Counted from the stretch's first letter, positions 25,543 through 46,706 are shown. The stretch: DNA of 64,000 bases from an uncultured Gammaproteobacteria bacterium (GCA_964590345.1 CAZPVP010000002.1:9945-73944), one strand, 5' to 3'. Numbers and translations are program-made. The notes: generated by a model not told the origin, from the sequence alone.

Positions 25543-25793
25543 AATTTTAAACTTAGTCCTTAAACCTTAAATCTTAAATCTCCTCACAACCCAAACAAAA
25601 ACCGAATAATCTTATACTTCCATAATAACCGAACAAAATCCGAATGTCAAGGGTGGTTATCCACAACATAGCAAAAACTACTTTTATTTATTGAAAAAAA
25701 ATCCGCCCATTTAAGTGCGGATCATTATCCCCTTTCGCCTACAAAATAAAGGCCTTTGGTGCGTTGAGTATTGTAGTATTGGGACATAATATT

Positions 25794-26143
25794 TTAAATC
25801 TCAAAATGTTTTTTTAAATATTGCTTAATCTGATTCAGAACAGATTGATCAGCTCGACCAATTTTTTTAATTAAACGGGAATAATCTAATGATGCTAAGC
25901 AATAAACTTTAATTATAGAATCAGATTTTAAGCAATTAGAAGAATCAGCAGCAATCAAAATATCATCAGCTAATTTATTTTCCCTAACTGAAGTTAAAGG
26001 GATAACTGTCACTAAATTAGATTTACATAACTGATCATTTGCCTCTATGACAATTGCCGGACGTCTGCCTTGATATTCATGCCCTACACTGGGATCAAAA
26101 TCAGTCCAAATAATATCGCCTTACTTTAATTTACCTTTTAAAT
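25794..26143 (-). pseudogene. MazF/PemK-family toxin gene with an in-frame TAA at codon 9
   Basis: The ATG overlaps the antitoxin stop (ATGA) and is followed by MNLKGKLK then TAA. Downstream, in the same frame, is GDIIWTDFDPSVGHEYQGRRPAIVIEAND...VTVIPLTS, which matches the MazF core. No canonical start follows the stop. Confidence 0.6.
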
Positions 26144-26989
26144 TCATAAATTTTCATAATAATCATATTCTTCTTTTGATATCGGACCTAATTCTTTCAA
26201 TATATCTTTGCCTGCTGCGTTTTGCCACTCAGCCCAGTGGTCTGCTTGAGCATAAGGAGCTGTGCGATCATAAACCAAATAATAAGGAATTATTTCTTTT
26301 TCTTTGGCAATTTTCCATGGGGTATCTTCATGCACATAATCTTCAATCTGCTTGGCATTCATATCTGACAAATTATTTATAACTTTATCAATCAATTTAA
26401 TTTCTTCAGCTTTTTTAAAAATAGACAAATCAGGATCAACCAAAGAAATATATCTTTTTTGTGGCATGCCATGATATGTCTGACTAATAATTTTTAATTC
26501 ATCATTTTTAACCATTTGTTCAATAACCGAATTATAATCTTTTAAGCACGGTACCGGACCGAACTGCAATTTGATATAATTCATGTTTGTTACTGGCTTT
26601 CCCAAAATTTCAAAAGCATCAAAATCAATAAAATAAAGCAGTTTATACAAAACAGTCTCACCCAAATTTGGTTTACCGCCGCACTTTTGTAAAATATACA
26701 AAATCACATTTTTCAATTTATATTGATCAAACTTGAATACTTGACTCTGTTTTTTATTAGCCTTTTTTTCAACTTTATTTTTTTCATCAATCAGCAAATA
26801 ATCAACTGAAGTTCCAAATACTTGGGCAATTTTAGCCAGCTCCAAAGAATCAATACTTCTTTTACTGGCTTCAATTTGCGCTACTGCTACACGAGAAAGG
26901 CCGATTTTTGAGGCTAATTCAGCCTGACTCATATCAAAATCAAGCCTTAATTTTTTAATTTTTTGGGCCAATTTTTTTTGACTTAACAT
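26144..26989 (-). CDS. antitoxin: N-terminal XRE-type HTH fused to a DUF4065/Panacea domain
   Basis: HTH (LAQKIKKLRLDFDMSQAELASKIGLSRVAV). The C-terminal region (LYKLLYFIDFDAFEILGKP) is DUF4065-like. The gene is translationally coupled to the downstream MazF-like ORF. Confidence 0.6.
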   Translation of the reverse strand: MLSQKKLAQKIKKLRLDFDMSQAELASKIGLSRVAVAQIEASKRSIDSLELAKIAQVFGTSVDYLLIDEKNKVEKKANKKQSQVFKFDQYKLKNVILYILQKCGGKPNLGETVLYKLLYFIDFDAFEILGKPVTNMNYIKLQFGPVPCLKDYNSVIEQMVKNDELKIISQTYHGMPQKRYISLVDPDLSIFKKAEEIKLIDKVINNLSDMNAKQIEDYVHEDTPWKIAKEKEIIPYYLVYDRTAPYAQADHWAEWQNAAGKDILKELGPISKEEYDYYENL

Positions 26990-27062
26990 AACGTTTTTTT
27001 TACTTGACTTAACTTATTTGAATTATAACATAATATATAAAATCTTACAATGATGTAAAAAA

Positions 27063-27081
27063 ACTTGACATTATTTGTCAA
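27063..27081. promoter_or_regulatory. palindromic operator candidate CTTGACA-N5-TGTCAAG upstream of the TA operon
   Basis: Perfect 7-bp inverted repeat arms about 75 nt upstream of the HTH-antitoxin start codon. Confidence 0.4.
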
Positions 27082-27159
27082 GCCTGCTATGTTGATAAAT
27101 AAGGAGCTTACTTCCAGCAATTCCCTAAGAATTGCTTAATAAATATATGGCGGCTAATT

Positions 27160-27191
27160 AAAGCGCTCGGGCTTTCAGCCCGAGCGCTTAT
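27160..27191 (-). terminator. GC-rich hairpin terminator downstream of the Cys-motif/TcmP-like gene pair
   Basis: Perfect 13-bp stem AAGCGCTCGGGCT / AGCCCGAGCGCTT with a 3-nt loop, in AT-rich context. Confidence 0.5.
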
Positions 27192-27216
27192 GCTATTAAA
27201 AATTTTCAAATATCTC

Positions 27217-28071
27217 TTAAGCATAACATCTTAAAAATTCCCTACATATTTCCGGTGTCGTAATAGAAACTTTAAAATTATTTTCCTGCAAATCCACAGT
27301 ATGTTCTTTTATGTGATATTCTATATTTCTTTCTAAACAAAATTTAATTACTTTATAAGTTAATTCATTATAATAAGACTTGTAATTAGAAAAATCACTG
27401 GTATTACTATTATAGTTCCATTTGCCAAAAACAATTTTGTCCACAAATGAAACTTTTTCCAAAATATCCTCAATATTTTGCTTTATATTAAATTTCTCTA
27501 ACATATTAGGCGTAGGATATGGTTCTATACTTACCCAAGTTTTCAGGTCATTATTATGCAAATTCTTCAAAGATTTTATTCTTTCTCTAACTTTTGCCGC
27601 ATATGGCTCATGTATTTTTTGAAATTTATCTGATAAAGAAATTATTGTAGAACCATACTCATTTATATCTTTATAAATATTTTTATTAAACAAATCTTTG
27701 GGATAAACACCTTTACTAATTGTTATTACTTTAATATTATCTTTATTCAATCTTTTGATTACATTTAAAGTCAAATTGTGAATCTCGGGTTGTTTATACA
27801 TAAAGGGGTCAGTAGCAAAAGACAGATAAACTGATTTAATCTGATTTTTATATTTGGGAATTTCTTTTTCTAATAATTCCAATGCATTGACAACAATTTT
27901 AGGCTGGCGCCATTCATTATAATTTTTTATAACACCGCATCTTTTTTTAAGCATCATAGCATAGCAAGGATAAGTACAGCCATGCACGCAACCTTCAGCA
28001 TGATTAATACAAAAATCAGCGTATTCAACACCGCTCTTGTAAAGCAAGGTTTTCCTTGTTATTTTTTGCAT
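27217..28071 (-). CDS. Cys-motif protein (CVHGCTYPCYA; radical-SAM-like/SplB-like)
   Basis: N-terminal GCVHGCTYPCYAM with Cx3Cx3C spacing and a CYA ending, resembling DNA-repair photolyase-like and three-Cys-motif families. It is the adjacent partner of the TcmP-like gene. Confidence 0.4.
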   Translation of the reverse strand: MQKITRKTLLYKSGVEYADFCINHAEGCVHGCTYPCYAMMLKKRCGVIKNYNEWRQPKIVVNALELLEKEIPKYKNQIKSVYLSFATDPFMYKQPEIHNLTLNVIKRLNKDNIKVITISKGVYPKDLFNKNIYKDINEYGSTIISLSDKFQKIHEPYAAKVRERIKSLKNLHNNDLKTWVSIEPYPTPNMLEKFNIKQNIEDILEKVSFVDKIVFGKWNYNSNTSDFSNYKSYYNELTYKVIKFCLERNIEYHIKEHTVDLQENNFKVSITTPEICREFLRCYA

Positions 28072-28110
28072 GGGGTTTTATCTATAAAAATCTATATAGT
28101 CGCAAATATA

Positions 28111-29034
28111 TTAAATATCAAATGAGCCCTGCAACATTTTGTCTTGCTCTTTCTTCGGTAAACATTGGAAAAGAGTACCATCCAAAGTAACTTTTTTATA
28201 AATATCCTCAATTATGCTTTTTGCTCCAGTATTTCTAGAAAGAAAAATAAGATAATATTTATTCCTACCCTTATTATAACAAATATCAATTATTTTAGCT
28301 CCAAGTTCGTATTTTTTAGCCACTTTATCATTATAATCAGCAAATATATTCAAATATATTTTTAAATTTTCTTTTTCTTCGCTAGTTAAATTTTTCCAAT
28401 CCTCTCCAAAAAAATCTTGAATTCTTCTTAAATTGCCAATAGCCATTTTTTGTATATCAATAGGTAAATTTTTTTTGCATTTCTTCCCGAAAGCAAGACA
28501 TCTTTCAACTCCCTTACAAATATAATTTATTAAAAATTCCTTTGCGACATTTGGGATATTAAGCATTTTCACTAGCATTTCTCTATAAATATTTATACCA
28601 GCAGGATCTATAAAAAAGAATATAGGAGCTTTACCAGATATAATCGGCAAAATATCATCTATTTTTTTATTTATGTCTCCGTTAAAACATTTAACATAAA
28701 AACCCCTTTTAATATATGGGCTAACAAATTTTTCTAAATCTTGAAAAGCATTTTTATCTTTTTCAACAAAAATACATTTTAAATCTTTATTATATTTTTC
28801 CTTGACCAACTTGGCTATTTCTAAAGCAATTAAGGGCGAACCAAGCACTGAATTTTTAACGCCCTCATTATTATACTTTCCTCTACCTACGAAACAATCA
28901 ATAAAATACATTTCTTGACACCATTTTTGTGCTGCTAATATTTTTGCCCATGCGGATAAATAATCATTTAAAATTTTAAGTTTTGTTTTTGTCTGTGTCT
29001 TATTAGTTATATCCCAAAAATCTTTTTTCTGCAT
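28111..29034 (-). CDS. TcmP-like partner protein (three-Cys-motif partner family resemblance)
   Basis: 307 aa with an N-terminal ...TKLKILNDYLSAWAKILA pattern. The assignment is from recalled family characteristics and needs HMM confirmation. Confidence 0.35.
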   Translation of the reverse strand: MQKKDFWDITNKTQTKTKLKILNDYLSAWAKILAAQKWCQEMYFIDCFVGRGKYNNEGVKNSVLGSPLIALEIAKLVKEKYNKDLKCIFVEKDKNAFQDLEKFVSPYIKRGFYVKCFNGDINKKIDDILPIISGKAPIFFFIDPAGINIYREMLVKMLNIPNVAKEFLINYICKGVERCLAFGKKCKKNLPIDIQKMAIGNLRRIQDFFGEDWKNLTSEEKENLKIYLNIFADYNDKVAKKYELGAKIIDICYNKGRNKYYLIFLSRNTGAKSIIEDIYKKVTLDGTLFQCLPKKEQDKMLQGSFDI

Positions 29035-29088
29035 AAAATATTATTAAATTTAATTTATGCTTTTATTGTGTCCCGAACAAAAACCGAA

Positions 29089-29226
29089 TACAAGCAAACT
29101 TATCCACAGACTCACTCTCCCTCAATTATTTTAACATCCTCTTCCCCCAACCCATACAACTTATACACTGCTTGATCTATCTCATAATCCACTGCCCTTA
29201 TCCTATCCGCATTTTTCTCGCGGGAT
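29089..29226 (-). pseudogene. orphan 3'-terminal fragment of a Type IIG/RM gene
   Basis: It translates to KTPQSREKNADRIRAVDYEIDQAVYKLYGLGEEDVKIIEGE-stop. That is about 75% identical at DNA level to the true C-terminus of the Type IIG gene at 31037-31160 (…KTSESREKNKTKIEAVDYEIDQEVYKLYNLTPEEIKVVEGK-stop). No upstream ORF exists. Confidence 0.55.
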
Positions 29227-29239
29227 TGAGGGGTTTTAT

Positions 29240-29989
29240 TTAATTTTTAATAGTATTTATTATCGATTTATAAATAATATACAATCCTATTATAAAAACA
29301 CATATTCCCCATATTAACATTAAAGCACCCCCCATATTTATTTTTTCTTTAGTTATGAATCCAATATCTGTTAGGGCTAAAAATACTACATTGATTATGA
29401 TAAATAAAATATTTGTGCTAAAAACAAATTTTAAATTATTTTTAAAATTAAATAATTCATCAAAAAAATCATTATATCTTTTTATATTTCTAAAAATTTC
29501 ATTAGCATAATATGCATATAAATTAGATTTTCCTGCTCGTAAATCTATCAGGTGTGCCTCACTATAGCCACATGCATCCTTTAATGCATTTTCAAGATTA
29601 ATTATTTTTATTTGATTAGCTTGTATTTTTGTCTTTATATCATGACCAATTTTTTTTGAATTTTCATAAATATCATATACTTGCTGATATCTATCTTTAT
29701 ATTCAAATAAAGCTAAATATATTTTAACAAGTCTATTATAATAATCCTCTTTTTCTTTTATTAATTTTCCATAAATCAAAACAAAAAAAGTTGCGCTCAA
29801 AGCAATTATCGCACCTAAAGTTTGTGCCATAGCACTAAATAAATATCTAAAAGTATCAACATTGATTATCTGATAGCAATAAACGATAAAAGCTAAAAGA
29901 ATAATTGCAATAATAGATATGAAAATTATTATTGCCACAAAGAATCCTCGTTTAAATTCCTTACTCATATGATAAAAAATCCAGTTCAT
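29240..29989 (-). CDS. hypothetical membrane protein (N-terminal TM plus two C-terminal TMs)
   Basis: 249 aa. It sits between the RM-gene fragment and the 347-aa gene. Its RBS lies within the conserved ...ATTGAGGGGAG junction sequence. Confidence 0.45.
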   Translation of the reverse strand: MNWIFYHMSKEFKRGFFVAIIIFISIIAIILLAFIVYCYQIINVDTFRYLFSAMAQTLGAIIALSATFFVLIYGKLIKEKEDYYNRLVKIYLALFEYKDRYQQVYDIYENSKKIGHDIKTKIQANQIKIINLENALKDACGYSEAHLIDLRAGKSNLYAYYANEIFRNIKRYNDFFDELFNFKNNLKFVFSTNILFIIINVVFLALTDIGFITKEKINMGGALMLIWGICVFIIGLYIIYKSIINTIKN

Positions 29990-30006
29990 ATTTTATCTCC
30001 CCTCAA

Positions 30007-31050
30007 TTATTTTAATCTTTTTACCCGCCCGAAAATTCTATAACCCGAAACAGTTCCCGTATCTTTTATAAAATTCAGATGATGCCTGATAACAAATTGC
30101 AGATTATCCATGCATTTTATGGCTTGTTTTTTGTAGGCATCTAACTCATAAAGATCGTGCTTAGGATGAACCAAATTGCTTGCAGTGGTTGAGATTTCGT
30201 TTACCTTTTTTGCCGCAATTTTACTTATTGGATACTTACCTCGAAATAGAGAATAGCTACGACAAGTTTCCGCCAAATGCTCTATGCTTTTTAGTTTTTT
30301 GTTATCTTTAGCTTGCTTGTAGATATCAAATCCCCTCCCAACTTTTAGGAGAATTCGTATAAGTGCCTGCTCTGTGGCTGTACGACAAACAACAATAGAG
30401 GAATAGTAATACCCGAGGACATAAAGTTCCTGTGCATGGGAGAAAAGATCGAAATAATTACCATCGTAGACCATCACACCTCGATACCTTTGTGACACTG
30501 TTATGTGTCTTTTCCACATTGCCGGTAATTCTTTCTCAAGCCCCGTTCTCCATCCCTGCAGGAATTCACTTTTTTCTTGCCTACGCATAGTCAATGGTAG
30601 ATAACCGCCACCACGAACTTTATGCGCAGTAGTGATTTTAAATTTATTTTCAAGGTCTTTTATTTTTTTAAAATCAGCATGCCAAATCCACCAATCTTTA
30701 TTAAAACGTACTACTAAAATTGTAGCCGATTTCTTACCCAGAGTTGGATCATGCCACTTAACATTTTTAATTTCGTGCAAATCTACATTGATGGGTTTGC
30801 CAGCATTATTCGGATTAAGCTTCCTGTTTTTAAACTCAAGCATTACCTGTACCGCGTTGTCGAGAAAAATACGATGACTTCCGTCGGATAAAATTTCAAT
30901 TCCGGCGACACTAAAATCTTTCAGACCCAGTCGTTTTAATTCAGGCTCAATATATTCTTTTATGGCTTTATTGACTGCCTGGCCAAAGCTTTGATTCTTT
31001 TTTACGTTTTCGTCTAGAATAAAGATTGCCATATTTTTATTTCCCCTCAA
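30007..31050 (-). CDS. hypothetical protein, compositionally distinct (higher GC)
   Basis: 347 aa. Its start overlaps the Type IIG stop by 14 bp. No recognisable motif. Confidence 0.45.
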   Translation of the reverse strand: MRGNKNMAIFILDENVKKNQSFGQAVNKAIKEYIEPELKRLGLKDFSVAGIEILSDGSHRIFLDNAVQVMLEFKNRKLNPNNAGKPINVDLHEIKNVKWHDPTLGKKSATILVVRFNKDWWIWHADFKKIKDLENKFKITTAHKVRGGGYLPLTMRRQEKSEFLQGWRTGLEKELPAMWKRHITVSQRYRGVMVYDGNYFDLFSHAQELYVLGYYYSSIVVCRTATEQALIRILLKVGRGFDIYKQAKDNKKLKSIEHLAETCRSYSLFRGKYPISKIAAKKVNEISTTASNLVHPKHDLYELDAYKKQAIKCMDNLQFVIRHHLNFIKDTGTVSGYRIFGRVKRLK

Positions 31051-34000
31051 CCACCTTAATCTCCTCAGGCGTCAAATTATACAACTTATAAACCTCCTGA
31101 TCAATTTCATAATCCACTGCCTCAATCTTTGTCTTGTTTTTCTCACGGGATTCAGAGGTTTTATTTAATTTAAGCATTTCATCAACAAGTTTGATTATAT
31201 TTTTACTTATCTTTTCATCAGGATCCTTGATAATTGGTAATTCCTTAAGGTATTCTATTGTTATTTGTGTTGTCAATTTCATACCTAGATTATAGGTGTA
31301 TTCATAATAAAAATTCATTAATTCTGAATTAAGAATCGCTAAAATTAGTTTTGGATTATAATCTTTTATACCAAAAATTGAATATACTGTGTTAAAAGCC
31401 AAAACATCTTTATCTTGTGTGACAAATGTACCCCCGGGTCTAGTCGCTATCCTTTTAATAAATATTCTATCTTTATTAAATGCCTCTCTTTTATAATCAA
31501 CACCTTTTAGAGACTCCTGAATATAATAAAAATCATTAATATAATATTTTTTCAATTCTTTACCCGAAATACATTTTATTTTATATTTATCTGTTTCTAT
31601 ATCAGAACTAATACATATACCTTTTTTATTTTTAATTAATCTCTTGCAATTCTTGCAATAATTACTAGCTTTTAGATTATAGTACTTCTCGCTCAATTCA
31701 TTATATACTCCACAACTATCACATTTTATCAAATTTGTTTTTTGACCTAATTCTATACCTCGTTTAATATCTGCTATTTCTTTAAGTTTTACACTAACCT
31801 TGTTAATTGTATTTAATAAATCTTGTTTCTCTTTGGTAATATCAAAAGAAAAAGCTTGAACTGGATTTTTTGAAAAAATATTCTGATTAATTGCGTGACT
31901 GGATACTAAATTACCATCAAAAATCTTTTCAATTATTGTCAGTGCTTTGGATTTAGATTTTGAGATTATGGGGCAGATACAATCAGATGCTACCCCAGGA
32001 AATTTACCGAAATCAATAAATTTAAATAATTGCCAATCATCTAAAATTTTACTTCTTATTATTTTATAAGAAGTATTTTTTATAAAAACTTTTGGAATTA
32101 ATATCCCCATTAATCCATTTGGATTTGTAATATTCACTGATTCTAAAACAAACGGTGCGAAAAGGTTTAAATTTTTAGTATCGATAATATAAGCATTGTT
32201 AATATAATCGGTAATTTCAATAGGCATTTTAGAACTCCATGGTGGATTACCGATCACCGCATCAAATCCGCCGTCCTTAAAAATCTCGCAAAAAGCCACT
32301 GAATAATTAAAAGGCTTTATTTTTTCCAAGTTTTTAAAATATTGTTTCAGGCCATCGTTTAACTTGCCATTAATCAATGTTTCAAATTTTTTAATTTCAA
32401 CCAGTAAATCTTTTTTCTCATCATTGGCTTCAGCTTGATAAAATTTTTCTTTCAGTTCGGTTAATTTAGCAATTTCTGTTTTATAATCATCAAACAAATT
32501 AAGATTCTGTTCTTTTTCTTTAAGCTTTTCTCCGCCAATTAAAGAATTACCGCAACGGATATTTAAATTTAAATTAGGCAAAAGATGCTTACCTTTTAAT
32601 TCTGCAGGGTTAACGCCTTCCAAAGCTTTGATCATTAAATTAAGCTTGGTAATTTCAATCGCTTTAGGGTCAAGATCAACACCAAAAAGATTTTTTTGCA
32701 AAACTTTTTTCCTAAAATCAAAACTCAAAAGCCCGCCTTCTTTGGAAACTTCCAAATATTTATTATAAATCTCTTCAAAAGCGCGAATTAAAAAAGAACC
32801 AGAACCACATGCCGGATCCAAAACTTTTATTTTTTCTACATCTTCAACTGTTTTGCATTTTTTTAATAATTCCCCAACAGTATTTTTAACTATGTAATCA
32901 ACAATATAAGCGGGCGTATAATAAATGCCTTGGGATTTACGTTTTGATTTTTGCTTTTGCTTTAGAGTGTCTTCCCTCTTAATATTGCCTTTGGCAATTT
33001 CACCTAAATAATTCTCATAAACTTCGCCGATTATATGGACACTTAATTTGCTAAAATCAATTTTTTTAAGCTCATTAATAATCTTTATAATTATTTCATC
33101 ATTAATTTTCAATTCATCAGCATCATTAGGTTCAAAAAGTTCAGTGTTGAATTTTTCGTCCATTGCTCTAAAAATTGACTTTAATTCTTCGTATTTTAAC
33201 TGCTTGGACTGCAAGACTGAATCCAAATAATCCTGTGAAATAATATTCCTGTCGCTGCATAAATCAATAAAAATCAAACGATCAATAATTTTCTGGGACA
33301 TTAATTCTGAATCATACTTAGGATAATTTTTAATAATAAAAGCACGCAATTTGGCGCGCCAATTTTTAATTTTATTAAAAAAATCTTTTTTAATCTTATC
33401 CTGTTCAAGATCCAATTGTTCAGGATAATAAATCGGATCAGAATCAATAATGCCGTTTTTTCTAGTTAATTCTGATTTTGATAATTGGCTTAAAAAATTC
33501 AAGCCTTCATCTGACAATAAATCAATATAATATCTTTTATCAGCATTATCCCATAATAAATCATGAAACGCATATTTTCTTTCTTTATATAAACGTCCGT
33601 GCTGGACACTGTATAAACGCCACTCAATAAAATTGGTTAAAACTCCCCAATACAAACCTTCACCGTGGCAATAATTAAATAATTGCTGGGTAAACGGCTT
33701 GTTGCCATAAGAGCCGTCAAGTTTGTCTTTACTAGAAGCATCTTTAGATTCAATCACTAAAAGCTTAGAGCCGGTATCGGATTTTAAAATAATATCAGGA
33801 TTTTTACCGGTTTTAACATCCTGTGCAGTATCCAAAACCCAATTAGAACTATCCCAGCCTAATATTTTAAGCAATTCAATAGTAAAACTGGTTTGAATGT
33901 CTTGTTCGCGTTTTGACCAGCCGTCCTGCGTCTTAAATTTATCAACCAATGCCTGAATCTGCTTTTTTAATTTCGCCTGTTCCAATTCAAGATTTGGCGT

Positions 34001-34057
34001 GTTTAATATTATTTTCTTTTTATCCATAAAGATAGTTGTAATAACCACTATTGACAA
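31037..34057 (-). CDS. Type IIG restriction-modification enzyme (MmeI/Eco57I-like: PD-ExK nuclease plus gamma-class N6-adenine MTase plus TRD)
   Basis: PD...ExK nuclease motif at the N-terminus (NPDIILKSDTGSKLLVIESKD). MTase motif I VLDPACGSGSFL and motif IV VIGNPPWSS. A Zn-ribbon CDSCG...CKNC lies in the C-terminal target-recognition region. 1006 aa. Confidence 0.85.
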   Translation of the reverse strand: MSIVVITTIFMDKKKIILNTPNLELEQAKLKKQIQALVDKFKTQDGWSKREQDIQTSFTIELLKILGWDSSNWVLDTAQDVKTGKNPDIILKSDTGSKLLVIESKDASSKDKLDGSYGNKPFTQQLFNYCHGEGLYWGVLTNFIEWRLYSVQHGRLYKERKYAFHDLLWDNADKRYYIDLLSDEGLNFLSQLSKSELTRKNGIIDSDPIYYPEQLDLEQDKIKKDFFNKIKNWRAKLRAFIIKNYPKYDSELMSQKIIDRLIFIDLCSDRNIISQDYLDSVLQSKQLKYEELKSIFRAMDEKFNTELFEPNDADELKINDEIIIKIINELKKIDFSKLSVHIIGEVYENYLGEIAKGNIKREDTLKQKQKSKRKSQGIYYTPAYIVDYIVKNTVGELLKKCKTVEDVEKIKVLDPACGSGSFLIRAFEEIYNKYLEVSKEGGLLSFDFRKKVLQKNLFGVDLDPKAIEITKLNLMIKALEGVNPAELKGKHLLPNLNLNIRCGNSLIGGEKLKEKEQNLNLFDDYKTEIAKLTELKEKFYQAEANDEKKDLLVEIKKFETLINGKLNDGLKQYFKNLEKIKPFNYSVAFCEIFKDGGFDAVIGNPPWSSKMPIEITDYINNAYIIDTKNLNLFAPFVLESVNITNPNGLMGILIPKVFIKNTSYKIIRSKILDDWQLFKFIDFGKFPGVASDCICPIISKSKSKALTIIEKIFDGNLVSSHAINQNIFSKNPVQAFSFDITKEKQDLLNTINKVSVKLKEIADIKRGIELGQKTNLIKCDSCGVYNELSEKYYNLKASNYCKNCKRLIKNKKGICISSDIETDKYKIKCISGKELKKYYINDFYYIQESLKGVDYKREAFNKDRIFIKRIATRPGGTFVTQDKDVLAFNTVYSIFGIKDYNPKLILAILNSELMNFYYEYTYNLGMKLTTQITIEYLKELPIIKDPDEKISKNIIKLVDEMLKLNKTSESREKNKTKIEAVDYEIDQEVYKLYNLTPEEIKVVEGK

Positions 34058-34144
34058 ATAAAGTGGTGTAATAGATAATTAAATTAGAAGTAAGTCCTCT
34101 TGCGTTGGGATACCGGATGGCGTCCCGCTAAAGCAAGGGGTTTT

Positions 34145-34760: not shown

Positions 34761-34886
34761 TAAACATATATTAAAATTACTATTATTTTACCTTTATTAT
34801 CAGCCAAAAGTCAATTAAACTGCGGCAAGCAAAAAAGCCGGCAAAAAACCGACTTATTTGCTCCCCTCTGTTTTATTAAAATACGA

Positions 34887-35585: not shown

Positions 35586-35717
35586 AAAATTCTTTAATTA
35601 TAATTAGTTAATTGTCTTTAATTATAACATAAATTACTTAAAATTAAAATAAATTTGCCATTTTTAAAAAATAGTGATAAATTATGATTATAACCTAAAA
35701 AAGGAGGGAAAATAAAA

Positions 35718-35939: not shown

Positions 35940-35957
35940 ATCTATTTTATTAAATTA

Positions 35958-38229: not shown

Positions 38230-38292
38230 TTTAAAATTATTTTATTATAAAAAATTTTAATTTACTTCGGCTATAATAGCCAAGACAACGCT

Positions 38293-39024: not shown

Positions 39025-39045
39025 TTATTTTAAAATTATTTAAAT

Positions 39046-40374
39046 TTATCTTTTCTCAATATCCTCTTCAACTTTTCTCTTTGCTTCTTCTAATAGTTCT
39101 TTGGCTTCCCAACGTAATTTAAATGATTCCCCTACCATTTTAGCGATTTTTTGTTGAGTTTTGAGAGGTAAAATTGGAATCAAAGTATTTTCAACCTGAT
39201 CCGGCCGCCAGTGATTAATAATTGACCCGCCTGCATCTCGATCAATTTGCATCTGGCAAATCAAAGAATTTAAAACCAAAGTTAAATATTGAGGATTTAA
39301 ATTTTTATCTTTAACCTTTAATCGCAAAATTCCGCCGGAAATAATGCCTTCCTTATCTTCATTCAAATAAATTGCAATGCCAGGTGTAGCATCTTTGCTT
39401 AATAAAATTTCGCCTTTTTGCGGCTGATATTTATCTTTTAATTCGCCGTATAATTTATCACTTAAAAATTGCTGATTATTATCATTAATACCAAATTTTG
39501 ACATATTGGAAACACGAATAAAAGGCTTGCCTTCTTCCTGATAAACATCGCTCCCGGACTCAATCCCTTTTAGAGATTCAACTAAATTACCCAACTTTTC
39601 TTTTTTAACTTTAATTTTACTTAAAATTTTCTCAAACTTAGGCTGGAAATATTCAGCATCAATCCGCCCTGCTTGTTGGCAGTCTTTTAAAGTAGTGGCA
39701 TAAGCCAAATCATCTTCAAGCTTTAAATCTTTAATACTCAATTCTTCAAGCAATAAAGCTTCGGCTTGAGAGTAAAAGAATTTGGATTTTGCTATTTTCT
39801 CAAAAACTTCTTTTACTATTTTTTTGATGTTTTGTTCATTTTTAACATAAAAAGGCAAATTCATTATATCTTCTTCCGTAACTGCCGGATACATACTAGC
39901 TGATGTCAATCTATCTAAAAGTGTTATTACATGATTTGTTTTTAAATAAGCAAATAAATACTCTGAAGAAACTTTTTGTGGCCATATATCACAAAATCCA
40001 CTTGAAGCGACAAATCCATCATCCTCTTTTTGTATTAAAGAAACAGCATTTCTATTAGGTCTAACAGTTGAAACTAACACATCGCCACTCTTAACAACTT
40101 TTTGCGCTCTATCTGGGGCGTCTTCTCCCATTATTTGTTTAGCATCAAAAGTCCCGTCATTTAAATTAATTTCAGAAATTTCAATATAATTAAAAATTTC
40201 TCCCTTTTTGGGTTTGAATCTTCTAGTAACATTTTTAGTATAATTATTTAATTTCTTGTCGGTTAATTTATTTAATTTTTTAATCAAATCTAAATACTCC
40301 GGCTGATAATATTCAGCATCTAGTCTTAAAGCACCTTCAAGATAATTTTTTTTAATTATTGAATAAGTTGACAT
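39046..40374 (-). CDS. hsdS: restriction-modification specificity (S) subunit (HsdS-like / Type IIB B-subunit-like)
   Basis: 442 aa with two target-recognition domains and conserved central and terminal repeats (LDAEYYQPEY... IDAEYFQPKF). Confidence 0.85.
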   Translation of the reverse strand: MSTYSIIKKNYLEGALRLDAEYYQPEYLDLIKKLNKLTDKKLNNYTKNVTRRFKPKKGEIFNYIEISEINLNDGTFDAKQIMGEDAPDRAQKVVKSGDVLVSTVRPNRNAVSLIQKEDDGFVASSGFCDIWPQKVSSEYLFAYLKTNHVITLLDRLTSASMYPAVTEEDIMNLPFYVKNEQNIKKIVKEVFEKIAKSKFFYSQAEALLLEELSIKDLKLEDDLAYATTLKDCQQAGRIDAEYFQPKFEKILSKIKVKKEKLGNLVESLKGIESGSDVYQEEGKPFIRVSNMSKFGINDNNQQFLSDKLYGELKDKYQPQKGEILLSKDATPGIAIYLNEDKEGIISGGILRLKVKDKNLNPQYLTLVLNSLICQMQIDRDAGGSIINHWRPDQVENTLIPILPLKTQQKIAKMVGESFKLRWEAKELLEEAKRKVEEDIEKR

Positions 40375-40463
40375 AATTTATTATTTAGTCCTCTTGTGGT
40401 GAGCTTGTCGAACCATCAAGTTGAGATTTTTTGATTATTGAGTAGGTCATTTATTTACTATAA

Positions 40464-40973
40464 TTATGGATATATTTTATAAATATTTTTATTATATACG
40501 AGATAAATTCCTAAAAATCCAGTTCCTTTAAAAAATTTTTTTCTTAAATCCTTTAAATCTTTTATTTCTTTACTAGATAATTTTCCAACTATCCACCAAC
40601 CATCTAAAAGTAAAATTAAGTCTCTTTTTAATTCAATTGAATATTTTTCTGATTTTTGTTTAATAGGTTCAATGATCCCTTTCTCAATCCGAGGATCTGG
40701 TTCTGTTCTATTATAAACCCTTAAAACTTCCCCTTTTGTTGCGAATTTTTCTCGCGCATCATAATCTGCAACGGTAATTTGCATCTTTAAAGTGTGTTCC
40801 GGATTAGATTTTTTATGAGCTAAAGCATCGATACCTTCATCTATTGATGGGTGATAAGGTTCACAGTAATCTTCGTTATGATTTTTATTAATATGTTCAA
40901 TAAAAATATTCGCAATTTTCAATTCATCATCTATATTTCCCAGTTGGGGTTTTTTGATTATTGAGTAGGTCAT
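40464..40973 (-). CDS. hypothetical protein whose first 8 codons duplicate the hsdS start region
   Basis: 169 aa. The sequence ATGACCTACTCAATAATCAAAAAA occurs again, with about 33 bp of upstream flank, at 40424-40450. Confidence 0.4.
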   Translation of the reverse strand: MTYSIIKKPQLGNIDDELKIANIFIEHINKNHNEDYCEPYHPSIDEGIDALAHKKSNPEHTLKMQITVADYDAREKFATKGEVLRVYNRTEPDPRIEKGIIEPIKQKSEKYSIELKRDLILLLDGWWIVGKLSSKEIKDLKDLRKKFFKGTGFLGIYLVYNKNIYKIYP

Positions 40974-41782
40974 AATTGTTTAGCATTATCTTTTGATTGA
41001 TCTTTTATCTTCGTTAATTTTTTATGTTGTTCCTGAAAATCATCACTTTCAATAATTTCTTGTAAAAGCGCTGTTGAATGAACTAAGGCTATCCCTGTAT
41101 TTTCTGTAAAAACTGATCTTATCTCACCAGTTTGTACACTAATTGCCTCATCTTTGTAAGGTACATATGCGCCTATAATTCCTGATAATTTTATTTCAAC
41201 TGGACCTCCTATTTGAACAGAATTATCTTTTATTTTAATTGGTGTTGGTAATAAAAAAACAGGACTTCCGCTATTGCCAGGAAAAGCGAACCCATCCATA
41301 AAAAATGTTTTATCATAATTAATTCTAGAAACTACTCCCTTTCGAATAATCGGATTAATAGCGGCATCTGTTTTTAATTCATTAATTCCTGGCTGATAAG
41401 ACAGGAAAAATAAATCGACTAATTCTTGAATATCAGAAATTTTTCTAATGAATAGATCATTGGGGATAAATTTAGATTTATCACTAGGAGCTAAAGGAAA
41501 TGGTAATAAGGCAATGTCCACTTTATTATCTCCATGTTTTTTCCATGACCATCCTTGCCTTAATATTTCAGTTATTGCTTTATAATTTATGCCAAAATTA
41601 TTAGAATTTAAAAAAATATACATTTTTTCATAATTTTTTTCTACTACATGTTTAGCTGTAGCTAAATAAAAGACATCGTCTACTTGTATTAAGAATCCAG
41701 TTCCAGAAAAAACAGGCTCACTATTATTCATGTATCCTAAAAAAATAGTACTTTCTTTAATTTGAGATATTAATTGTTTCAT
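40970..41782 (-). CDS. trypsin-like (S1/Trypsin_2) serine peptidase
   Basis: Catalytic-triad candidates: H in LATAKHVV, D in VDIALL, S in FPGNSGSPVF (GDSGGP-like). Confidence 0.65.
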   Translation of the reverse strand: MKQLISQIKESTIFLGYMNNSEPVFSGTGFLIQVDDVFYLATAKHVVEKNYEKMYIFLNSNNFGINYKAITEILRQGWSWKKHGDNKVDIALLPFPLAPSDKSKFIPNDLFIRKISDIQELVDLFFLSYQPGINELKTDAAINPIIRKGVVSRINYDKTFFMDGFAFPGNSGSPVFLLPTPIKIKDNSVQIGGPVEIKLSGIIGAYVPYKDEAISVQTGEIRSVFTENTGIALVHSTALLQEIIESDDFQEQHKKLTKIKDQSKDNAKQL

Positions 41783-41795
41783 AATATGTAATTTA

Positions 41796-42350
41796 TTAAT
41801 TAAACTTCTTTTTTAAGTCTAAAATTAAATTTTCACAAGCAAAATCTATCTGTCTAAATTCGGCAATATAGCCTTCTTTATAATTTTTAGAAGTACTAAT
41901 TTCATCAAGTAAAGTATCTAATCCTTTTAAATTATCATTTCCTTTTGATATTTCTTTACATTTCTCAATCGCCTTTTTAGTTAAAATTATAAAATTATCT
42001 TTATGATTATAATATTGAGATATATGCCCAATCCTATTATGTCGAATTAGTAAAAAATCTTTTGAATATTCATTTAATTTATCTATTTCTGTTTTTTTCA
42101 AACAATCAAATTCATATAAAGACCATGTTCCGTTCCTTGAATCAAAAAATGTAGATAAAATCAAACAAATAGTCCTGGTTAAGCTATCCAATACCATTTG
42201 AAAAAAATGATTATAATTATTATTGTTAATATTTACATTTACTGCAATTTTATCATAAATAACCAATATAGAATTTAATCTACTTAATTCTTTATATAAA
42301 TACCCCCAAATTTCATATTCAGTATTATTTATTTTCTTGCCTTTTAGCAT
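41796..42350 (-). CDS. hypothetical protein with RHNRIGH (Rx4-6H, HEPN-like) motif
   Basis: 184 aa. It contains a single Rx5H motif. This is a weak assignment. Confidence 0.3.
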   Translation of the reverse strand: MLKGKKINNTEYEIWGYLYKELSRLNSILVIYDKIAVNVNINNNNYNHFFQMVLDSLTRTICLILSTFFDSRNGTWSLYEFDCLKKTEIDKLNEYSKDFLLIRHNRIGHISQYYNHKDNFIILTKKAIEKCKEISKGNDNLKGLDTLLDEISTSKNYKEGYIAEFRQIDFACENLILDLKKKFN

Positions 42351-42479
42351 AGAATATGATTAATTTACTTAATTTTGATTATCCACAGATATATTGACAA
42401 AATTTGACAATATATGAAAAATTGGTATAATGACAATGTAGTGCAAGCTACCCTCATCTATAGGATAATAGATATGTGT

Positions 42480-43136
42480 TTATACCTCCGCCTTAACGGG
42501 CGGAGTGTTTTGATTCTCAAATTTTAAAAATTGCGCTAAAGTTTCAGCCGGAATAAACTTATCTGCAACTGTTTCAAGTTCAGTACTCATTCTATTTCGG
42601 GTACTAACCACTATTATTTTTTTCTTTTTAGTCTTTAAATATGCAAGTAGTCCCCCAAAATCACTATCTCCTGAAAACAGCATTACAGTATCATATTTAT
42701 GAATTTTAACTAGCATATCTTGAGTTATTTCTACATCAAAATTGCATTTAGGAAATTTGCCTAAAAATTTTCCATCTTCATCATAATGAGGCACCATTTT
42801 AATTTCCTTGGTCCTTTTGGTAAAACCTGCTTTTTCTGCTTTTTCAACTCTATAAAGAGATTTTCCATGTTTTACATTTAATTCGTGATCTTTGGATAAA
42901 TTAGGATATTTTGCATAATGGCCATAATAGAAAAATTTTTTTGAGGGTTTAACCCATTCGCACAAGTTAGCTAGCTTCTCAATATCTATTTCCCAACAAA
43001 GTTTGTATTTATTTTCCTCCGGCCAAAATTCTTTTGCCCAAGGCCTAACATTTCCAAAATCTACGAAAACATAAATATTTTCAAATTCACCGGGTTTGAA
43101 AAAATAATAATTGCATTTAAAATCGTTTATTTCCAT
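42480..43136 (-). CDS. NYN/LabA-like PIN-fold ribonuclease domain protein
   Basis: VFVDFGNV ... MLFSGDSDFGGLLAYLK ... KIIVVS pattern of the NYN domain. Confidence 0.65.
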   Translation of the reverse strand: MEINDFKCNYYFFKPGEFENIYVFVDFGNVRPWAKEFWPEENKYKLCWEIDIEKLANLCEWVKPSKKFFYYGHYAKYPNLSKDHELNVKHGKSLYRVEKAEKAGFTKRTKEIKMVPHYDEDGKFLGKFPKCNFDVEITQDMLVKIHKYDTVMLFSGDSDFGGLLAYLKTKKKKIIVVSTRNRMSTELETVADKFIPAETLAQFLKFENQNTPPVKAEV

Positions 43137-43240
43137 GCAAATAAAATTTGTGATTACTGATTAAATTTACTTAATTTTGCTTATCCACACTGGATATTGA
43201 CAAAACATGTGAATTTGCTATAATAATTACAGAATATTAG

Positions 43241-43282
43241 AAAAAGGCGTCGGCTCTATTGGCCGATGGCCTTTTTCATTTT
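43241..43282 (-). terminator. terminator hairpin at the 3' end of the DUF3800 gene
   Basis: On the minus strand, AAAAAGGCCATCGGC-loop-GCCGACGCCTTTTT followed by CTAATATTCT. Confidence 0.45.
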
Positions 43283-44029
43283 AGCTAAAAAACCATCCGT
43301 CTTATGATGGTGAATATTAAAAGCGAAATTTCTAAAATCCTTAGTTAAAATGTTTACTCCCAAATTTTCTTTGATTTTTTTGACAAATTCCTGCTTTACA
43401 GATGATGGAGCAGAAATTATGCCATCTTTCAATAGTAATTCGTAATTAATTGCACCAGTTATAAGATCGGTTAATTGCAATAAATCATTTGTTCGTGAAT
43501 CAAGACGACAAACACCGGCGATTGCCAAACGATCAAACTTCTTATTTAAATTATTTTTAATATTGACTTCAAATTTACTCCTTTTGGGTGTAATTAAATT
43601 ATCGGCTAAAACAATTAAAACTTCGTTTTTTCTTAAATTTCCTTCCAAAAGATGCTGGGCAACTCTTTCATAAGCTAAAAAAGGATCACTATGAAATTCA
43701 TTTCTGAAATATTTGCTCCTTTTATCTATTGAATATGAGGTATAAAAAATACTTCTGGTACTAAATAAAGCTTCCAGAGCCAACAAATAAACATTTAATT
43801 TAGCTTTATTTAAATTATTAAATTTTAATTCCCACCAAAAATGATTGCATTCTCTAATATAACGCATTTTTTGCTGTAAATAATAAGGCTGGGAACATTT
43901 AATCATGCCTACTGTGAAATATGGCTGGGTTTCAATAGATAATGCTCCTGATTCATCTAAAAAGCAAAATGGGGTCCAGATATTTTTATAATCTCCTAAT
44001 GTTAAATTGTGATTATCATTATTTTCCAT
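43256..44029 (-). CDS. DUF3800 family protein (intact copy)
   Basis: N-terminal FCFLDESG signature. 257 aa. Confidence 0.65.
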   Translation of the reverse strand: MENNDNHNLTLGDYKNIWTPFCFLDESGALSIETQPYFTVGMIKCSQPYYLQQKMRYIRECNHFWWELKFNNLNKAKLNVYLLALEALFSTRSIFYTSYSIDKRSKYFRNEFHSDPFLAYERVAQHLLEGNLRKNEVLIVLADNLITPKRSKFEVNIKNNLNKKFDRLAIAGVCRLDSRTNDLLQLTDLITGAINYELLLKDGIISAPSSVKQEFVKKIKENLGVNILTKDFRNFAFNIHHHKTDGFLAKMKKAIGQ

Positions 44030-44036
44030 ATTAAAA

Positions 44037-45980
44037 TTAAAGAAAATTTAAATTATCCTTTTTGGCAAATTTTAAAAACTCATCAGCGATTTCATCTAAA
44101 TCATGATCAATTATTTTTTTACCTTTTAAATTAACCATTTTATTGCCTTCTTCATCTTTTTTATAAACATACTCACCGGAATTATCCTTACCTGATTTTT
44201 GGGATGTTGCCATGAAAATATTATAATCTTTTTTCGGTTTTTCATTTTCTAACCATTTTTGCAAAAACAAAACAGAAGTCTTAGTACCTGTATGAGGTTT
44301 AAATGTATTAACCTGCAAGCCAACTACTGCTAATATTCTAGCTTTATCCATTAAAAATTCCCTGACTTGCTGCATATTAGTATTATTAAAAACGCCTTGC
44401 GGCAAAACAATGGCTAAACGGCCACCTGGTTTAATAATATTTAATGACCGTTCAATAAATAAAATATGGCGTTCCATTTTATTTTTTAATTTGCCTTTAT
44501 CATTTTTCGCCAATTCATATTTATTTAATAAAGATTTTTCAATTATCTCACCGGCAAAAGGCGGATTGGACAATAAAATATCAAAATTAAAATATTTAAA
44601 ATTATCTTCATTATCCTTGTCTTTGGTATAATCATTGAATTTATAAAGCCTTTGCTGTAATTCTGCCCTGGCTCTTAATTTTTCACTTTCATTACCCATC
44701 CATTCTTGGGGATTTAAAGAATTTAATTTAAAAATATGAGAGCGACCATCGCCAGCTATTAGCATTAAAGCACGGGAAATTTTGACTGATTTTTCATCAA
44801 AATCAATGCCATATAAATAACGCTGAGCATATTCTCTCATTAATTCCTTATCCATGCTTAAAAATTCTTTTTTAACATGATTCATCGTATGGATTAAAAA
44901 TCCACCAGATCCACAAGCCGGATCAATCACATATTCTGTGGTTTGCGGATTTAACATTTTAACTGCCATATCAATAACATGACGCGGTGTAAAATATTGT
45001 CCCTTTTTCCCCTTAGCAATATCCGGTAATAAATATTCAAAAGCAGAGTCAATTACATCAAGATTGGCATCAAGTAATTTTATTTTTTCAAATTCACCAA
45101 CACAAACCGACAAGTGTCCCGGATTTAAATCAATTTTTTCATATTCATTAAAAATACCAGGCCATTCTTTTTTCGCACCATCAAAAAGCTGGCTAATATG
45201 ATCATAAGTTAATTGTGGATCTTTATATTGCCTAAATAATAATTCTTTATCTTTACGCTTTTTGGCCTCTTTCTCATCATATAATTTAGCGTAAATTAAT
45301 TTAAAAATCTCATTAAAACTATCAGCACCTGATCCAGCTAAAACCAATTCTTCTAATACGCGAATAATACTAACTAAATCAAAGTCAACCTCTAAATCAC
45401 TAATCGTTAATTTTTCATCCAAAACATCTTCAATATCCTGGTCAACTCTGGGAATATCACGCAAAGTGCTCTCAAATTGATCCGGATATTTACGATATAA
45501 AATAACTTTCTCATCGCCATTAGACCAAACGCCGATTGGCGCACCTTTAGAATTAACATAAGTTTTTAATTGTTCTAAACCTTTTTTCTCATCTGGCTTT
45601 TTGAGTTCAAAAATAATTAGGGCTGTTTCTTTATCCTTATGGAAAACTATAATATCAGCCGCTTTGACATGCACTTCCCCGCCAAAATGAATATTTTGTT
45701 CAATACCGATCCGGTCTAAAGGATAACCATATATTTTGATCAATTTATAAATCCATAATTGCCGAATGATTTCTTCCGGCTTAGATATTTTTTTTTCTTC
45801 GTTCAAAATTAAAATATCCTGATTGCGCACAGGATCTTTAACATAATATTTGCCGTCTTTGGCAACGATATCTAAAACTTCAGCAATTTTTATTCCTTTA
45901 AATTCCTTAAGGCCATATTCCAATTCAGGATCTTTAAAAATTTTAGTAATTACTTGATGCGCTAATTCTTTTTTAAGCAT
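44037..45980 (-). CDS. fused PD-ExK nuclease (HsdR_N-like) plus N6-adenine DNA methyltransferase; BcgI-A-like Type IIB/IIG RM subunit
   Basis: N-terminal AADIIVF...IIFELKKPD (D-x-ExK). MTase motif I VIDPACGSGGFL and motif IV LLSNPPFAG. At 647 aa its size matches the BcgI A subunit. The cognate S subunit lies 3.7 kb downstream at 39046-40374. Confidence 0.75.
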   Translation of the reverse strand: MLKKELAHQVITKIFKDPELEYGLKEFKGIKIAEVLDIVAKDGKYYVKDPVRNQDILILNEEKKISKPEEIIRQLWIYKLIKIYGYPLDRIGIEQNIHFGGEVHVKAADIIVFHKDKETALIIFELKKPDEKKGLEQLKTYVNSKGAPIGVWSNGDEKVILYRKYPDQFESTLRDIPRVDQDIEDVLDEKLTISDLEVDFDLVSIIRVLEELVLAGSGADSFNEIFKLIYAKLYDEKEAKKRKDKELLFRQYKDPQLTYDHISQLFDGAKKEWPGIFNEYEKIDLNPGHLSVCVGEFEKIKLLDANLDVIDSAFEYLLPDIAKGKKGQYFTPRHVIDMAVKMLNPQTTEYVIDPACGSGGFLIHTMNHVKKEFLSMDKELMREYAQRYLYGIDFDEKSVKISRALMLIAGDGRSHIFKLNSLNPQEWMGNESEKLRARAELQQRLYKFNDYTKDKDNEDNFKYFNFDILLSNPPFAGEIIEKSLLNKYELAKNDKGKLKNKMERHILFIERSLNIIKPGGRLAIVLPQGVFNNTNMQQVREFLMDKARILAVVGLQVNTFKPHTGTKTSVLFLQKWLENEKPKKDYNIFMATSQKSGKDNSGEYVYKKDEEGNKMVNLKGKKIIDHDLDEIADEFLKFAKKDNLNFL

Positions 45981-45981
45981 A

Positions 45982-46599
45982 TTATCTTGATAAATTTTTA
46001 ATTATTTTTCCTTTAATGTAGGTTTCCTCGCAAACAGGGATGATATCATATTTCGGATTTTCTGGCTGAAAAAATGTTCTGTTGCCTTTAAATTTTAAAC
46101 GTTTAACAGTAAAACCAATATCCATGACGTGAGCAAAAACAATATCATTATCTTTAAATTCATTGCCTTTTTGAACAAGCAAAAGGTCTCCGTCATGAAT
46201 ACCAGCTCCGATCATTGAATCGCCAAAAGCTTTAATAATAGTCAATTTGTCTGAAAATTCATGAACTTCAGAAGACAATTCTATCCAATGATCTTTTTGC
46301 TCAAAAACTTCTACTAAAGCTCCGCAAGGGGCTTCTCCCTCCATTTTTATTACTGGTTTAACATTTAGTGCGTCAAATCCTTTTTTTAAAATTTGAATTG
46401 ACCTAGCCACACCTTCATTTCTTTTGATAAATTTGCCATTTTCTAAAATTTCTAATAAATCTAAAACTGCTTGATTAGATTTTACATCTAACTCTCTTTT
46501 CATATCTTCAAAAGAAGGTCCAAAACCTGAAGATTTCAGCCAATCATAAATAATCTGAAGCAATTGCTTTTGCCTTTTTGTTATTGCATGGGGTTTCAT
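45982..46599 (-). CDS. second LexA-like repressor (wHTH plus S24 peptidase)
   Basis: TKRQKQLLQIIYDW...GFGPSFEDM at the N-terminus and AFGDSMIGAGIHDGDLLLV in the C-terminal region. Its stop lies 1 bp before the ATG of the RM nuclease-MTase gene. Confidence 0.75.
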   Translation of the reverse strand: MKPHAITKRQKQLLQIIYDWLKSSGFGPSFEDMKRELDVKSNQAVLDLLEILENGKFIKRNEGVARSIQILKKGFDALNVKPVIKMEGEAPCGALVEVFEQKDHWIELSSEVHEFSDKLTIIKAFGDSMIGAGIHDGDLLLVQKGNEFKDNDIVFAHVMDIGFTVKRLKFKGNRTFFQPENPKYDIIPVCEETYIKGKIIKNLSR

Positions 46600-46613
46600 A
46601 TGTCTATATTTTA

Positions 46614-46631
46614 ACTGACTATTTAGTCAGT
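46614..46631. promoter_or_regulatory. palindromic operator candidate ACTGACTA-TT-TAGTCAGT in the 5' UTR of the LexA-like gene
   Basis: Perfect 8-bp arms, 15-32 nt upstream of the start codon. Adjacent to TGTGGATAA (minus-strand sense). Confidence 0.45.
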
Positions 46632-46706
46632 AGTCAAATTATTTATCCACAAAAAAACATCCCCTATAGAAATGTTTTTTTACATAAAAAATATTTTATA
46701 AATTCC

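Follow-up and report, generated by a model that had tools for sequence, protein, structure and literature searches.

The 9-nucleotide word TTATCCACA, the canonical DnaA box, was found in five exact copies in a 64-kb stretch of bacterial DNA (CAZPVP010000002.1:9945-73944; "the window" hereafter means this whole stretch). Comparison with related genomes indicated that the 9-mer is a conserved promoter-proximal cis-element of LexA-family repressor genes and that it is separate from the LexA operators. Among the 62 loci fetched with the window LexA as the query, the exact 9-mer adjoined the lexA promoter in all 19 that were Parcubacteria-type (L001-L017, L030, and L056). As judged from the sequences, the word is probably a genuine regulatory site for protein binding, and the chance that the binding protein is DnaA, acting as a monomer on a single high-affinity box, is put at about even.

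Occurrence of the 9-mer in the window

All five copies were on the plus strand, at 25657, 29100, 42379, 43181, and 46643 (sites 1 to 5). A first-pass annotation of the window had reported five perfect plus-strand copies upstream of minus-strand genes, and the exact-match count confirmed them; four of its five positions were correct, and the fourth, printed as 43191, was a typographical error for 43181. The distances of 29-115 nt that it gave from the 9-mer to the minus-strand start codons were also correct. It had estimated less than one copy by chance on both strands in 64 kb; dinucleotide-preserving shuffles gave a mean of 0.53 copies, and none of the 100 shuffles reached five. Variants with one mismatch numbered 26 against 18.6 expected and were thus not enriched, indicating that only the exact word is special. 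On the minus strand the 9-mer reads TGTGGATAA, and it agrees with the canonical DnaA box at all nine positions.

Each copy was located 5-16 nt upstream of a -35 hexamer, that is, in a promoter-proximal position, and each lay in the gap between two operons, behind a terminator-like hairpin. All long open reading frames (ORFs) at 19-53 kb were on the minus strand. The copies had also been described as having the same orientation; this holds for the strand but not for the direction of transcription, because the strongest promoters at 42379 and 43181 are on the plus strand. The window had a G+C content of about 31%, and no tRNA or Rfam family was detected in its 64 kb. Its LexA (24530-25141) was 75-85% identical to LexA of metagenome-assembled genomes of Falkowbacteria, Uhrbacteria, and Parcubacteria, indicating that the window is derived from a genome of the Patescibacteria (candidate phyla radiation, CPR; Parcubacteria-type).

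Conservation of the 9-mer at lexA promoters

An independent set of lexA promoters was obtained by scanning metagenomes with the LexA box. In this set, the 9-mer was present at every lexA promoter on contigs with a G+C fraction below 0.5, with one mismatch in a single case (L092), and it was absent from high-GC lexA promoters having the same LexA box. No 9-mer was observed beside the lexA promoter in the non-CPR loci L025-L055. The LexA proteins of the lineages in which the 9-mer at the lexA promoter was conserved were 55-85% identical. When 796 kb of related low-GC DNA was examined, 40 copies were counted against 7.4 expected; 31 of these were at lexA promoters and the other nine were at about the chance level, indicating that the 9-mer is neither a general word of CPR DNA nor a general promoter element.

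The position of the 9-mer varied among the lineages. In L001-L008, as in the window, it was forward and 5-7 nt upstream of the -35 hexamer; in L009-L011, L017, and L056 it was reversed and 9-10 nt upstream; and in L014-L016 it was forward and approximately 10 nt downstream of the -10 hexamer, where further copies were also found in L106 and L120. The spacing to the -35 hexamer was mostly N5-7 (range 3-10) in 20 forward cases and N7-10 in 10 reversed cases. This variation in orientation and distance to the hexamers is not that of a core promoter element. The 9-mer also differed from a LexA operator in that it contained no repeat or dyad, had no fixed place (its offset from the LexA box was -16 to -24 or +33 to +59, on either strand), and was missing from some promoters of the regulon. 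Its absence from the SOS-box promoters of a small non-lexA gene of about 80 amino acids (L079, L103, L112, and L156) indicates that the LexA box does not include it.

Over 61 non-redundant contexts, the only informative flanking positions were the two bases after TGTGGATAA, with C or G in 44 contexts, followed by T in 43. The extended consensus is TGTGGATAAST, and no partner half-site was seen.

Other readings of the word were tried and rejected. A sigma-28 type -10 element (GCCGATAA) with TAAA at -35 was not supported, as no consistent TAAA was seen by eye at 15 nt; an extended -10 or TRTG reading of TGTGGATAA was discarded because the hexamers after it (ATAAnn) were unlike TATAAT. The CRP-like dyad TGTGG-N4-CCACA lacked generality, being seen partly at site 1 and otherwise at L056:15959 alone, and the base following GATAA was variable, which does not fit a Fur box (GATAAT repeats). 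Clusters of DnaA boxes with up to one mismatch, as would be expected for an oriC, were found in the window and the loci only within coding sequences, namely that of IMP dehydrogenase (encoding "GFIHK") and the lexA ORF.

Three further observations were made in the same loci. A copy of the exact 9-mer was found approximately 170 nt upstream of ssb in L014 (4640-4990) and L015 (13520-13880), and also in L013 (near 11641); preceding it are the promoter-like sequence TTGACA..TAAAAT and a conserved region in which GCGCCGTCGC words recur, possibly a leader or small RNA. The small non-lexA gene mentioned above, found also in L069, encodes a conserved protein of about 73-113 amino acids (..FTKKGPKPYALKW..KKYIIEKINLVYEK..LKWxLEEVY) downstream of perfect LexA-box promoters, both in CPR and in other phyla, and is a candidate SOS gene. 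In the Microgenomates/Shapirobacteria-type loci L019-L024, a different direct repeat, TTGACTTTTTGGGTTTTCTTTGGTAAAT, was located upstream of lexA (about 9940-9990), which suggests a second LexA operator type within CPR.

Promoters at sites 1 and 2

Site 1 belongs to the lexA operon and site 2 precedes the genes for a TcmP-like protein and a radical SAM protein. The features of the two sites are as follows.
25657-25665, minus strand: 9-mer copy 1 (read as TGTGGATAA), 6 nt upstream of the -35 hexamer of the four-helix-bundle/lexA operon; same arrangement in L001-L008
25622-25650, minus strand: promoter of the lexA operon, TTGACA-N17-TATTAT (11/12), from the promoter scan
25629-25644, minus strand: LexA box TTCGGATTTTGTTCGG, filling the promoter spacer
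25591-25606, minus strand: another LexA box, TTCGGTTTTTGTTTGG, past the promoter; L001-L008 likewise have a second box
24530-25542, minus strand: operon of the four-helix-bundle (23S rRNA IVP/bAvd-like) gene, 25177-25542, and lexA, 24530-25141
29100-29108, minus strand: 9-mer copy 2, 6 nt before the -35 hexamer TTGTAT and beginning 3 nt past the stop codon of the remnant of a type IIG gene
29065-29093, minus strand: weak promoter TTGTAT-N17-CACAAT, hexamers read by eye and under the threshold of the promoter scan
29073-29088, minus strand: perfect LexA box TTCGGTTTTTGTTCGG in the promoter spacer
28111-29034 and 27217-28071, minus strand: TcmP and radical SAM genes, respectively, driven from the site 2 promoter

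The layout was TGTGGATAA-N6-TTGACA-N17-TATTAT at site 1 and TGTGGATAA-N6-TTGTAT-[TTCGGTTTTTGTTCGG]-CACAAT at site 2, both on the minus strand. These two sites and site 5 share a common design of 9-mer, hexamers, and operator, and their spacer sequences are unrelated. Predicted transcription starts lie near 25615 (site 1), 29058 (site 2), and 46601 (site 5), all on the minus strand. Both repeat families noted in the first-pass annotation exist, and the first of them (GAACAAAAMCCGAAT) proved to be the LexA operator; in the relatives, TTCGGNTTTTGTTCGG lies between the -35 and -10 hexamers of lexA, as this family does in the window. The operator TTCGGNTTTTGTTCGG belongs to the direct repeats of the GTTC-N7-GTTC type, known as LexA operators in Alphaproteobacteria and Acidobacteria. 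A direct-repeat motif is also given as the recognition sequence of Patescibacteria LexA in two articles (PMC7739468 and PMC8565304, both citing Sanchez-Osuna, Barbe & Erill 2017).

Some neighboring genes were of note. The remnant next to site 2 (29109-29246, minus strand; ..AVDYEIDQAVYKLYGLGEEDVKIIEGE*) is the C-terminal part of a type IIG restriction-modification (R-M) gene and shares 74% DNA identity with the end of the intact gene (31037-34057). Directly downstream of lexA is a pair of radical SAM and DUF4130 genes (TIGR03916/TIGR03915; putative DNA modification or repair; 21889-24050, minus strand); the 480 nt separating this pair from lexA showed no LexA box. Between sites 1 and 2 (25794-26989, minus strand), a truncated MazF/PemK-like ORF of 72 amino acids, whose match covers just the C-terminal part of the profile, is adjacent to a gene with a helix-turn-helix and a SocA/Panacea antitoxin domain.

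The 9-mer at promoters of a second LexA clade

Site 5 precedes an R-M operon headed by a second LexA-family gene, here called LexA-like-2.
46643-46651, minus strand: 9-mer copy 5, 5 nt upstream of the -35 hexamer of the LexA-like-2/type IIG R-M/DUF3800 operon
46608-46637, minus strand: promoter TTGACT-N18-TAAAAT (10/12), from the promoter scan
46614-46631, minus strand: palindromic operator ACTGACTAAATAGTCAGT in the promoter spacer
43256-46599, minus strand: operon of LexA-like-2 (45982-46599), type IIG methylase/endonuclease (44037-45980), and DUF3800 (43256-44029)

LexA-like-2 was 28% identical to LexA and had the LexA_DNA_bind and S24 peptidase domains. Its homologues were numerous in Patescibacteria, and in every context fetched (the window, L183-L189, L192, and L320) the gene was the first of an R-M operon, the partners being either a type IIG enzyme or an N6_N4 methylase with a HinfI-like enzyme. 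The LexA-like-2 promoters had a palindromic operator with the core GACYAAAYAGTC between the -35 and -10 hexamers, and the exact 9-mer was present upstream in five of six lineages, with TATGGATAA in the sixth (L320). The 9-mer stood forward at N5-6, as in the site 5 layout (TGTGGATAA-N5-TTGACT-N18-TAAAAT, minus strand), reversed at N11, or forward at N39. Since the two repressor clades have different operators and a common 9-mer, the 9-mer is separate from LexA binding. These results suggest that duplication of lexA carried the promoter design along, and LexA-like-2 appears to be an analogue of R-M controller proteins that can cleave itself. Neither LexA-like-2 nor TcmP was found in the viral collection.

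A LexA fused to a C5 cytosine DNA methyltransferase was also observed, in L110 (from 7521 onward, plus strand) and L168 (minus strand). The fusion proteins have 519-525 amino acids with the motifs DLFAGxGG and GFPCQAFS, and their promoter has a LexA box and the 9-mer.

Plus-strand promoters and a small RNA at sites 3 and 4

Sites 3 and 4 had been assigned to the HEPN-like and NYN genes, respectively. Their features, predicted from the sequence, are listed below.
42379-42387, plus strand: 9-mer copy 3 (TTATCCACA in the direction of plus-strand transcription), 6 and 16 nt upstream of two TTGACA hexamers
42404-42431, plus strand: perfect sigma-70 promoter TTGACA-N16-tgTATAAT (12/12), from the promoter scan
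42438-42515, plus strand: predicted structured small RNA of about 78 nt, with a GNRA hairpin, a middle hairpin, and an intrinsic terminator
42486-42505, plus strand: intrinsic terminator of the small RNA, followed by a T tail
42480-43136, minus strand: NYN gene, the 3' end of which is overlapped by the convergent small RNA
43181-43189, plus strand: 9-mer copy 4, 7 nt upstream of a TTGACA hexamer
43197-43224, plus strand: perfect promoter TTGACA-N16-tgTATAAT (12/12), from the promoter scan
43241-43276, both strands: bidirectional terminator hairpin of the DUF3800 gene, about 17 nt past the site 4 promoter

These two promoters were the only sigma-70 promoters scoring 12/12 in the region of 41.5-47 kb; both are on the plus strand with TG before the -10 hexamer, and each precedes a plus-strand intrinsic terminator. 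The transcript predicted for the site 4 promoter and terminator (43197-43278) is about 48 nt and would span 43231-43278. Sites 3 and 4 would therefore be better explained as plus-strand small-RNA promoters than as promoters of the HEPN-like and NYN genes. There are also weak minus-strand promoters, TTGTCA-N17/18-CAAAAT (9/12), that would have the 9-mer in their spacer, and the 9-mer may affect the HEPN-like and NYN genes. The second repeat family of the first-pass annotation corresponds to a duplicated plus-strand promoter block, TGATTAAATTTACTTAATTTTG-n-TTATCCACA-n-ATATTGACAAAA. The two sites share a block of about 55 nt, the one upstream at site 4 being a partial duplicate of that at site 3; the shared block gave 0 matches in the viral contigs, the only collection scanned for it. 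A similar opposite-strand promoter with the same hairpin as at site 4 was seen in L192, where it has no 9-mer.

The same small RNA was found at the same place beside NYN orthologues in four other lineages (L190, L192, L193, and L197) and also in L320, on the minus strand of each locus.
L190:3620-3703
L192:3614-3695
L193:3603-3687
L197:3622-3708
L320:3621-3701

The conserved RNA is about 80 nt and consists of a 5' GNRA hairpin, a middle hairpin with an ACGAT-ATCGT motif, and the intrinsic terminator. RNAalifold showed compensatory changes in 8 of 18 pairs. A covariance model built from the small-RNA sequences found the independent locus L320 with 74.6 bits and had no other match in 790 kb; against Rfam, no family reached the gathering score or E<=10. 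The NYN/LabA-family orthologues were 60-75% identical across many CPR lineages and look like core genes, and the small RNA might regulate as an antisense RNA or serve the NYN nuclease as a partner.

The protein expected to bind the 9-mer

The exactness of the word, its free orientation and position, and the unalignable spacers indicate that it behaves as a transcription-factor site rather than a core promoter element. TTATCCACA is the canonical and strongest, high-affinity DnaA box, so DnaA is the obvious candidate; domain IV of DnaA binds such boxes as a monomer, and an asymmetric 9- to 11-mer with an invariant core and no half-site fits a monomer-binding protein of this kind. The first-pass annotation had proposed the binding site of one regulator, either DnaA or another factor, coordinating defense genes. 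The first half is consistent with our results, in that the word behaves as the site of a trans-acting factor, exact at lexA and lexA-like promoters in many Parcubacteria genomes over a background near chance. The coordination of defense genes is not, because the conserved targets are LexA-family repressor genes.

DnaA boxes serve as operators in E. coli (dnaA, nrdAB, mioC, and uvrB), in B. subtilis (dnaA, sda, and ywlC), and in the Caulobacter regulon, with the same asymmetric 9-bp TTATCCACA. As in those systems, the boxes studied here are single, lie beside or inside sigma-70 promoters in either orientation, and have a plausible link to replication and repair through lexA and ssb. Most of the known regions, however, contain multiple boxes, some of them degenerate; the promoters here each have one perfect box, with a flank preference (S-T after TGTGGATAA) that is not the textbook one. 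DnaA binding at these promoters is a prediction. We know of no DnaA regulon with lexA or R-M controller genes as conserved core targets. SOS boxes occupy the same promoters, but the distance and orientation of the 9-mer vary, it is missing at other SOS-box promoters, and it is present with a palindromic operator. Site 5 resembles the control of R-M systems by C proteins in having a small autoregulated repressor gene first in the operon and an operator in its own promoter (LexA-like-2, GACYAAAYAGTC palindrome); it differs in that the controller is of the LexA family (LexA_DNA_bind with a self-cleaving S24 peptidase) instead of the Xre type, and in the extra 9-mer. UP elements and class I activator sites share the position, mostly about -50 to -42, but the 9-mer is not A/T-tract-like, occurs in both orientations, and also lies downstream of the -10 hexamer. 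Among these systems, the element would best be filed as a promoter operator of the DnaA-box type with a new, conserved target set.

Alternative explanations

The most serious alternative, which we nevertheless regard as rather unlikely, is that another Parcubacteria DNA-binding protein, such as a global regulator of small genomes or a damage- or phage-responsive factor, binds the 9-mer and that the identity with the DnaA box is coincidental. The conservation evidence is silent on which protein binds, the TGTGGATAAST preference extends outside the textbook box, and the link is confined to one sub-radiation of CPR although DnaA is universal. On the other hand, most bacterial regulators bind dyads or direct repeats and the 9-mer is single and asymmetric with no half-site; all nine positions match the strongest DnaA box; and, as a matter of general knowledge, DnaA would be expected on a perfect box anyway if CPR DnaA has the usual specificity. 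A bound protein, DnaA or other, might also act as a roadblock or insulator that stops read-through from the co-directional upstream gene with no contact with RNA polymerase. This is improbable: the inter-operon gaps behind hairpins, the free orientation and distance, the copies far upstream in L187-189 and L320 that stand before the hairpin, and the importance of leak-through at controlled genes (lexA and R-M) would suit it, but the spacing is tighter than an insulator needs, and the copies past the -10 hexamer would block the promoter's own transcript.

That the five copies are functionless and arose by chance plus copying, through a mobile promoter cassette or local duplications, is very improbable and largely refuted. 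Sites 3 and 4 are clearly one duplication, and the within-window statistics are weaker with families as the unit of counting; NYN orthologues without an upstream 9-mer point the same way. Nevertheless, sites 1, 2, and 5 share functional elements only, the 9-mer is kept at orthologous promoters of diverged lexA genes and in the second LexA clade, the block of sites 3 and 4 was absent from the viral collection, and unalignable flanks speak against recent horizontal copies of one cassette. The mobile promoter cassette offered in the first-pass annotation could not be maintained for either repeat family: the surroundings of the first are unrelated between sites 1 and 2, and the second is a local duplication, not found elsewhere in the viral collection. 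The repeat-family analysis of the window detected no element of the mobile-cassette type. It is likewise very improbable, and contradicted by its orientations and positions, that the 9-mer is a UP-like or extended part of the core promoter or a part of the LexA operator. It does mostly lie directly upstream of the -35 hexamer, the UP-element position, and accompanies every good LexA box at lexA genes; yet it occurs in both orientations and downstream of the -10 hexamer, is absent from other strong promoters, from non-lexA SOS-box promoters, and from high-GC lexA promoters with the same LexA box, and is present at LexA-like-2 promoters with a different operator.

Several observations weigh against DnaA control of the LexA-family promoters. 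Neither a dnaA gene (searched by signature peptides) nor an oriC was found in the approximately 1.8 Mb examined, and a literature search gave no link of DnaA boxes to lexA promoters or to CPR. The Microgenomates-type lexA promoters have no 9-mer and use another operator, TTTGG-N6-TTTGG. A distance of 39 nt, with a hairpin in between, separates the 9-mer from the -35 hexamer in L187-189 and L320, which is awkward for direct contact with RNA polymerase. The sampled DNA was centered on lexA, lexA-like, and NYN genes and not on a wider regulon. Upstream of the NYN orthologues, no 9-mer was present at six loci in four gene contexts, including the syntenic Falkowbacteria locus L192, and this likewise speaks against a coordination of defense genes. 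At the small-RNA promoter, the 9-mer was exact in two of six lineages (the window and L190/L191, the latter with TGTGGATAA-N3-TTGACA), had one mismatch in L193 and L197, and was absent in L192 and L320. Sites 3 and 4 thus appear to be the weakest members of the set and, because the syntenic L192 has no 9-mer upstream of its NYN gene, may be recent and of little consequence.

Proposed mechanism and significance

In the mechanism that we propose for DnaA as the binding protein, the box would be a regular component of LexA-family repressor promoters in Parcubacteria-type CPR, both the SOS lexA and the second clade that heads R-M operons, adjoining but separate from each repressor's own operator between the -35 and -10 hexamers. 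Occupying about -50 to -42, or in certain lineages about +5 to +15, the bound protein would modulate the access of RNA polymerase. We consider a co-repressor role most likely, since repression is the sole effect that the downstream position allows. The autoregulated promoters would gain replication status as a second input beside the RecA-triggered self-cleavage of the repressor. The copies in the window would then be explained by lexA (site 1), an SOS-box promoter of the same design before TcmP and radical SAM (site 2), the lexA-like R-M controller (site 5), a plus-strand small-RNA promoter beside NYN (site 3), and its partial duplicate (site 4). Of these points, the sequences show the occurrence of the 9-mer, its promoter geometry, its conservation among genomes, and its independence of the LexA operators; the binding of a protein, the identity of this protein as DnaA, and the sign of the effect are inferred. 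In its full extent, that DnaA is wired into LexA-family repressor promoters across a large part of CPR, including the R-M-controlling clade and the LexA-methyltransferase fusions, so that replication status and DNA damage jointly set SOS and R-M expression, this proposal is tentative and falls short of an even chance. To our knowledge, a promoter design with dual DnaA and LexA input has been described in no phylum.

CPR bacteria are uncultured and have tiny genomes with very few regulators, and their transcription control is almost unstudied. A letter-perfect cis-element at lexA promoters across many lineages thus provides a concrete regulatory link in this group. Two apparent gene promoters are re-annotated as putative small-RNA promoters, and a conserved small RNA is paired with a highly conserved NYN nuclease gene. 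If DnaA binds the 9-mer, replication control and the SOS response would be coupled at the promoter in CPR, and this coupling would extend to R-M operons under LexA-like controllers.

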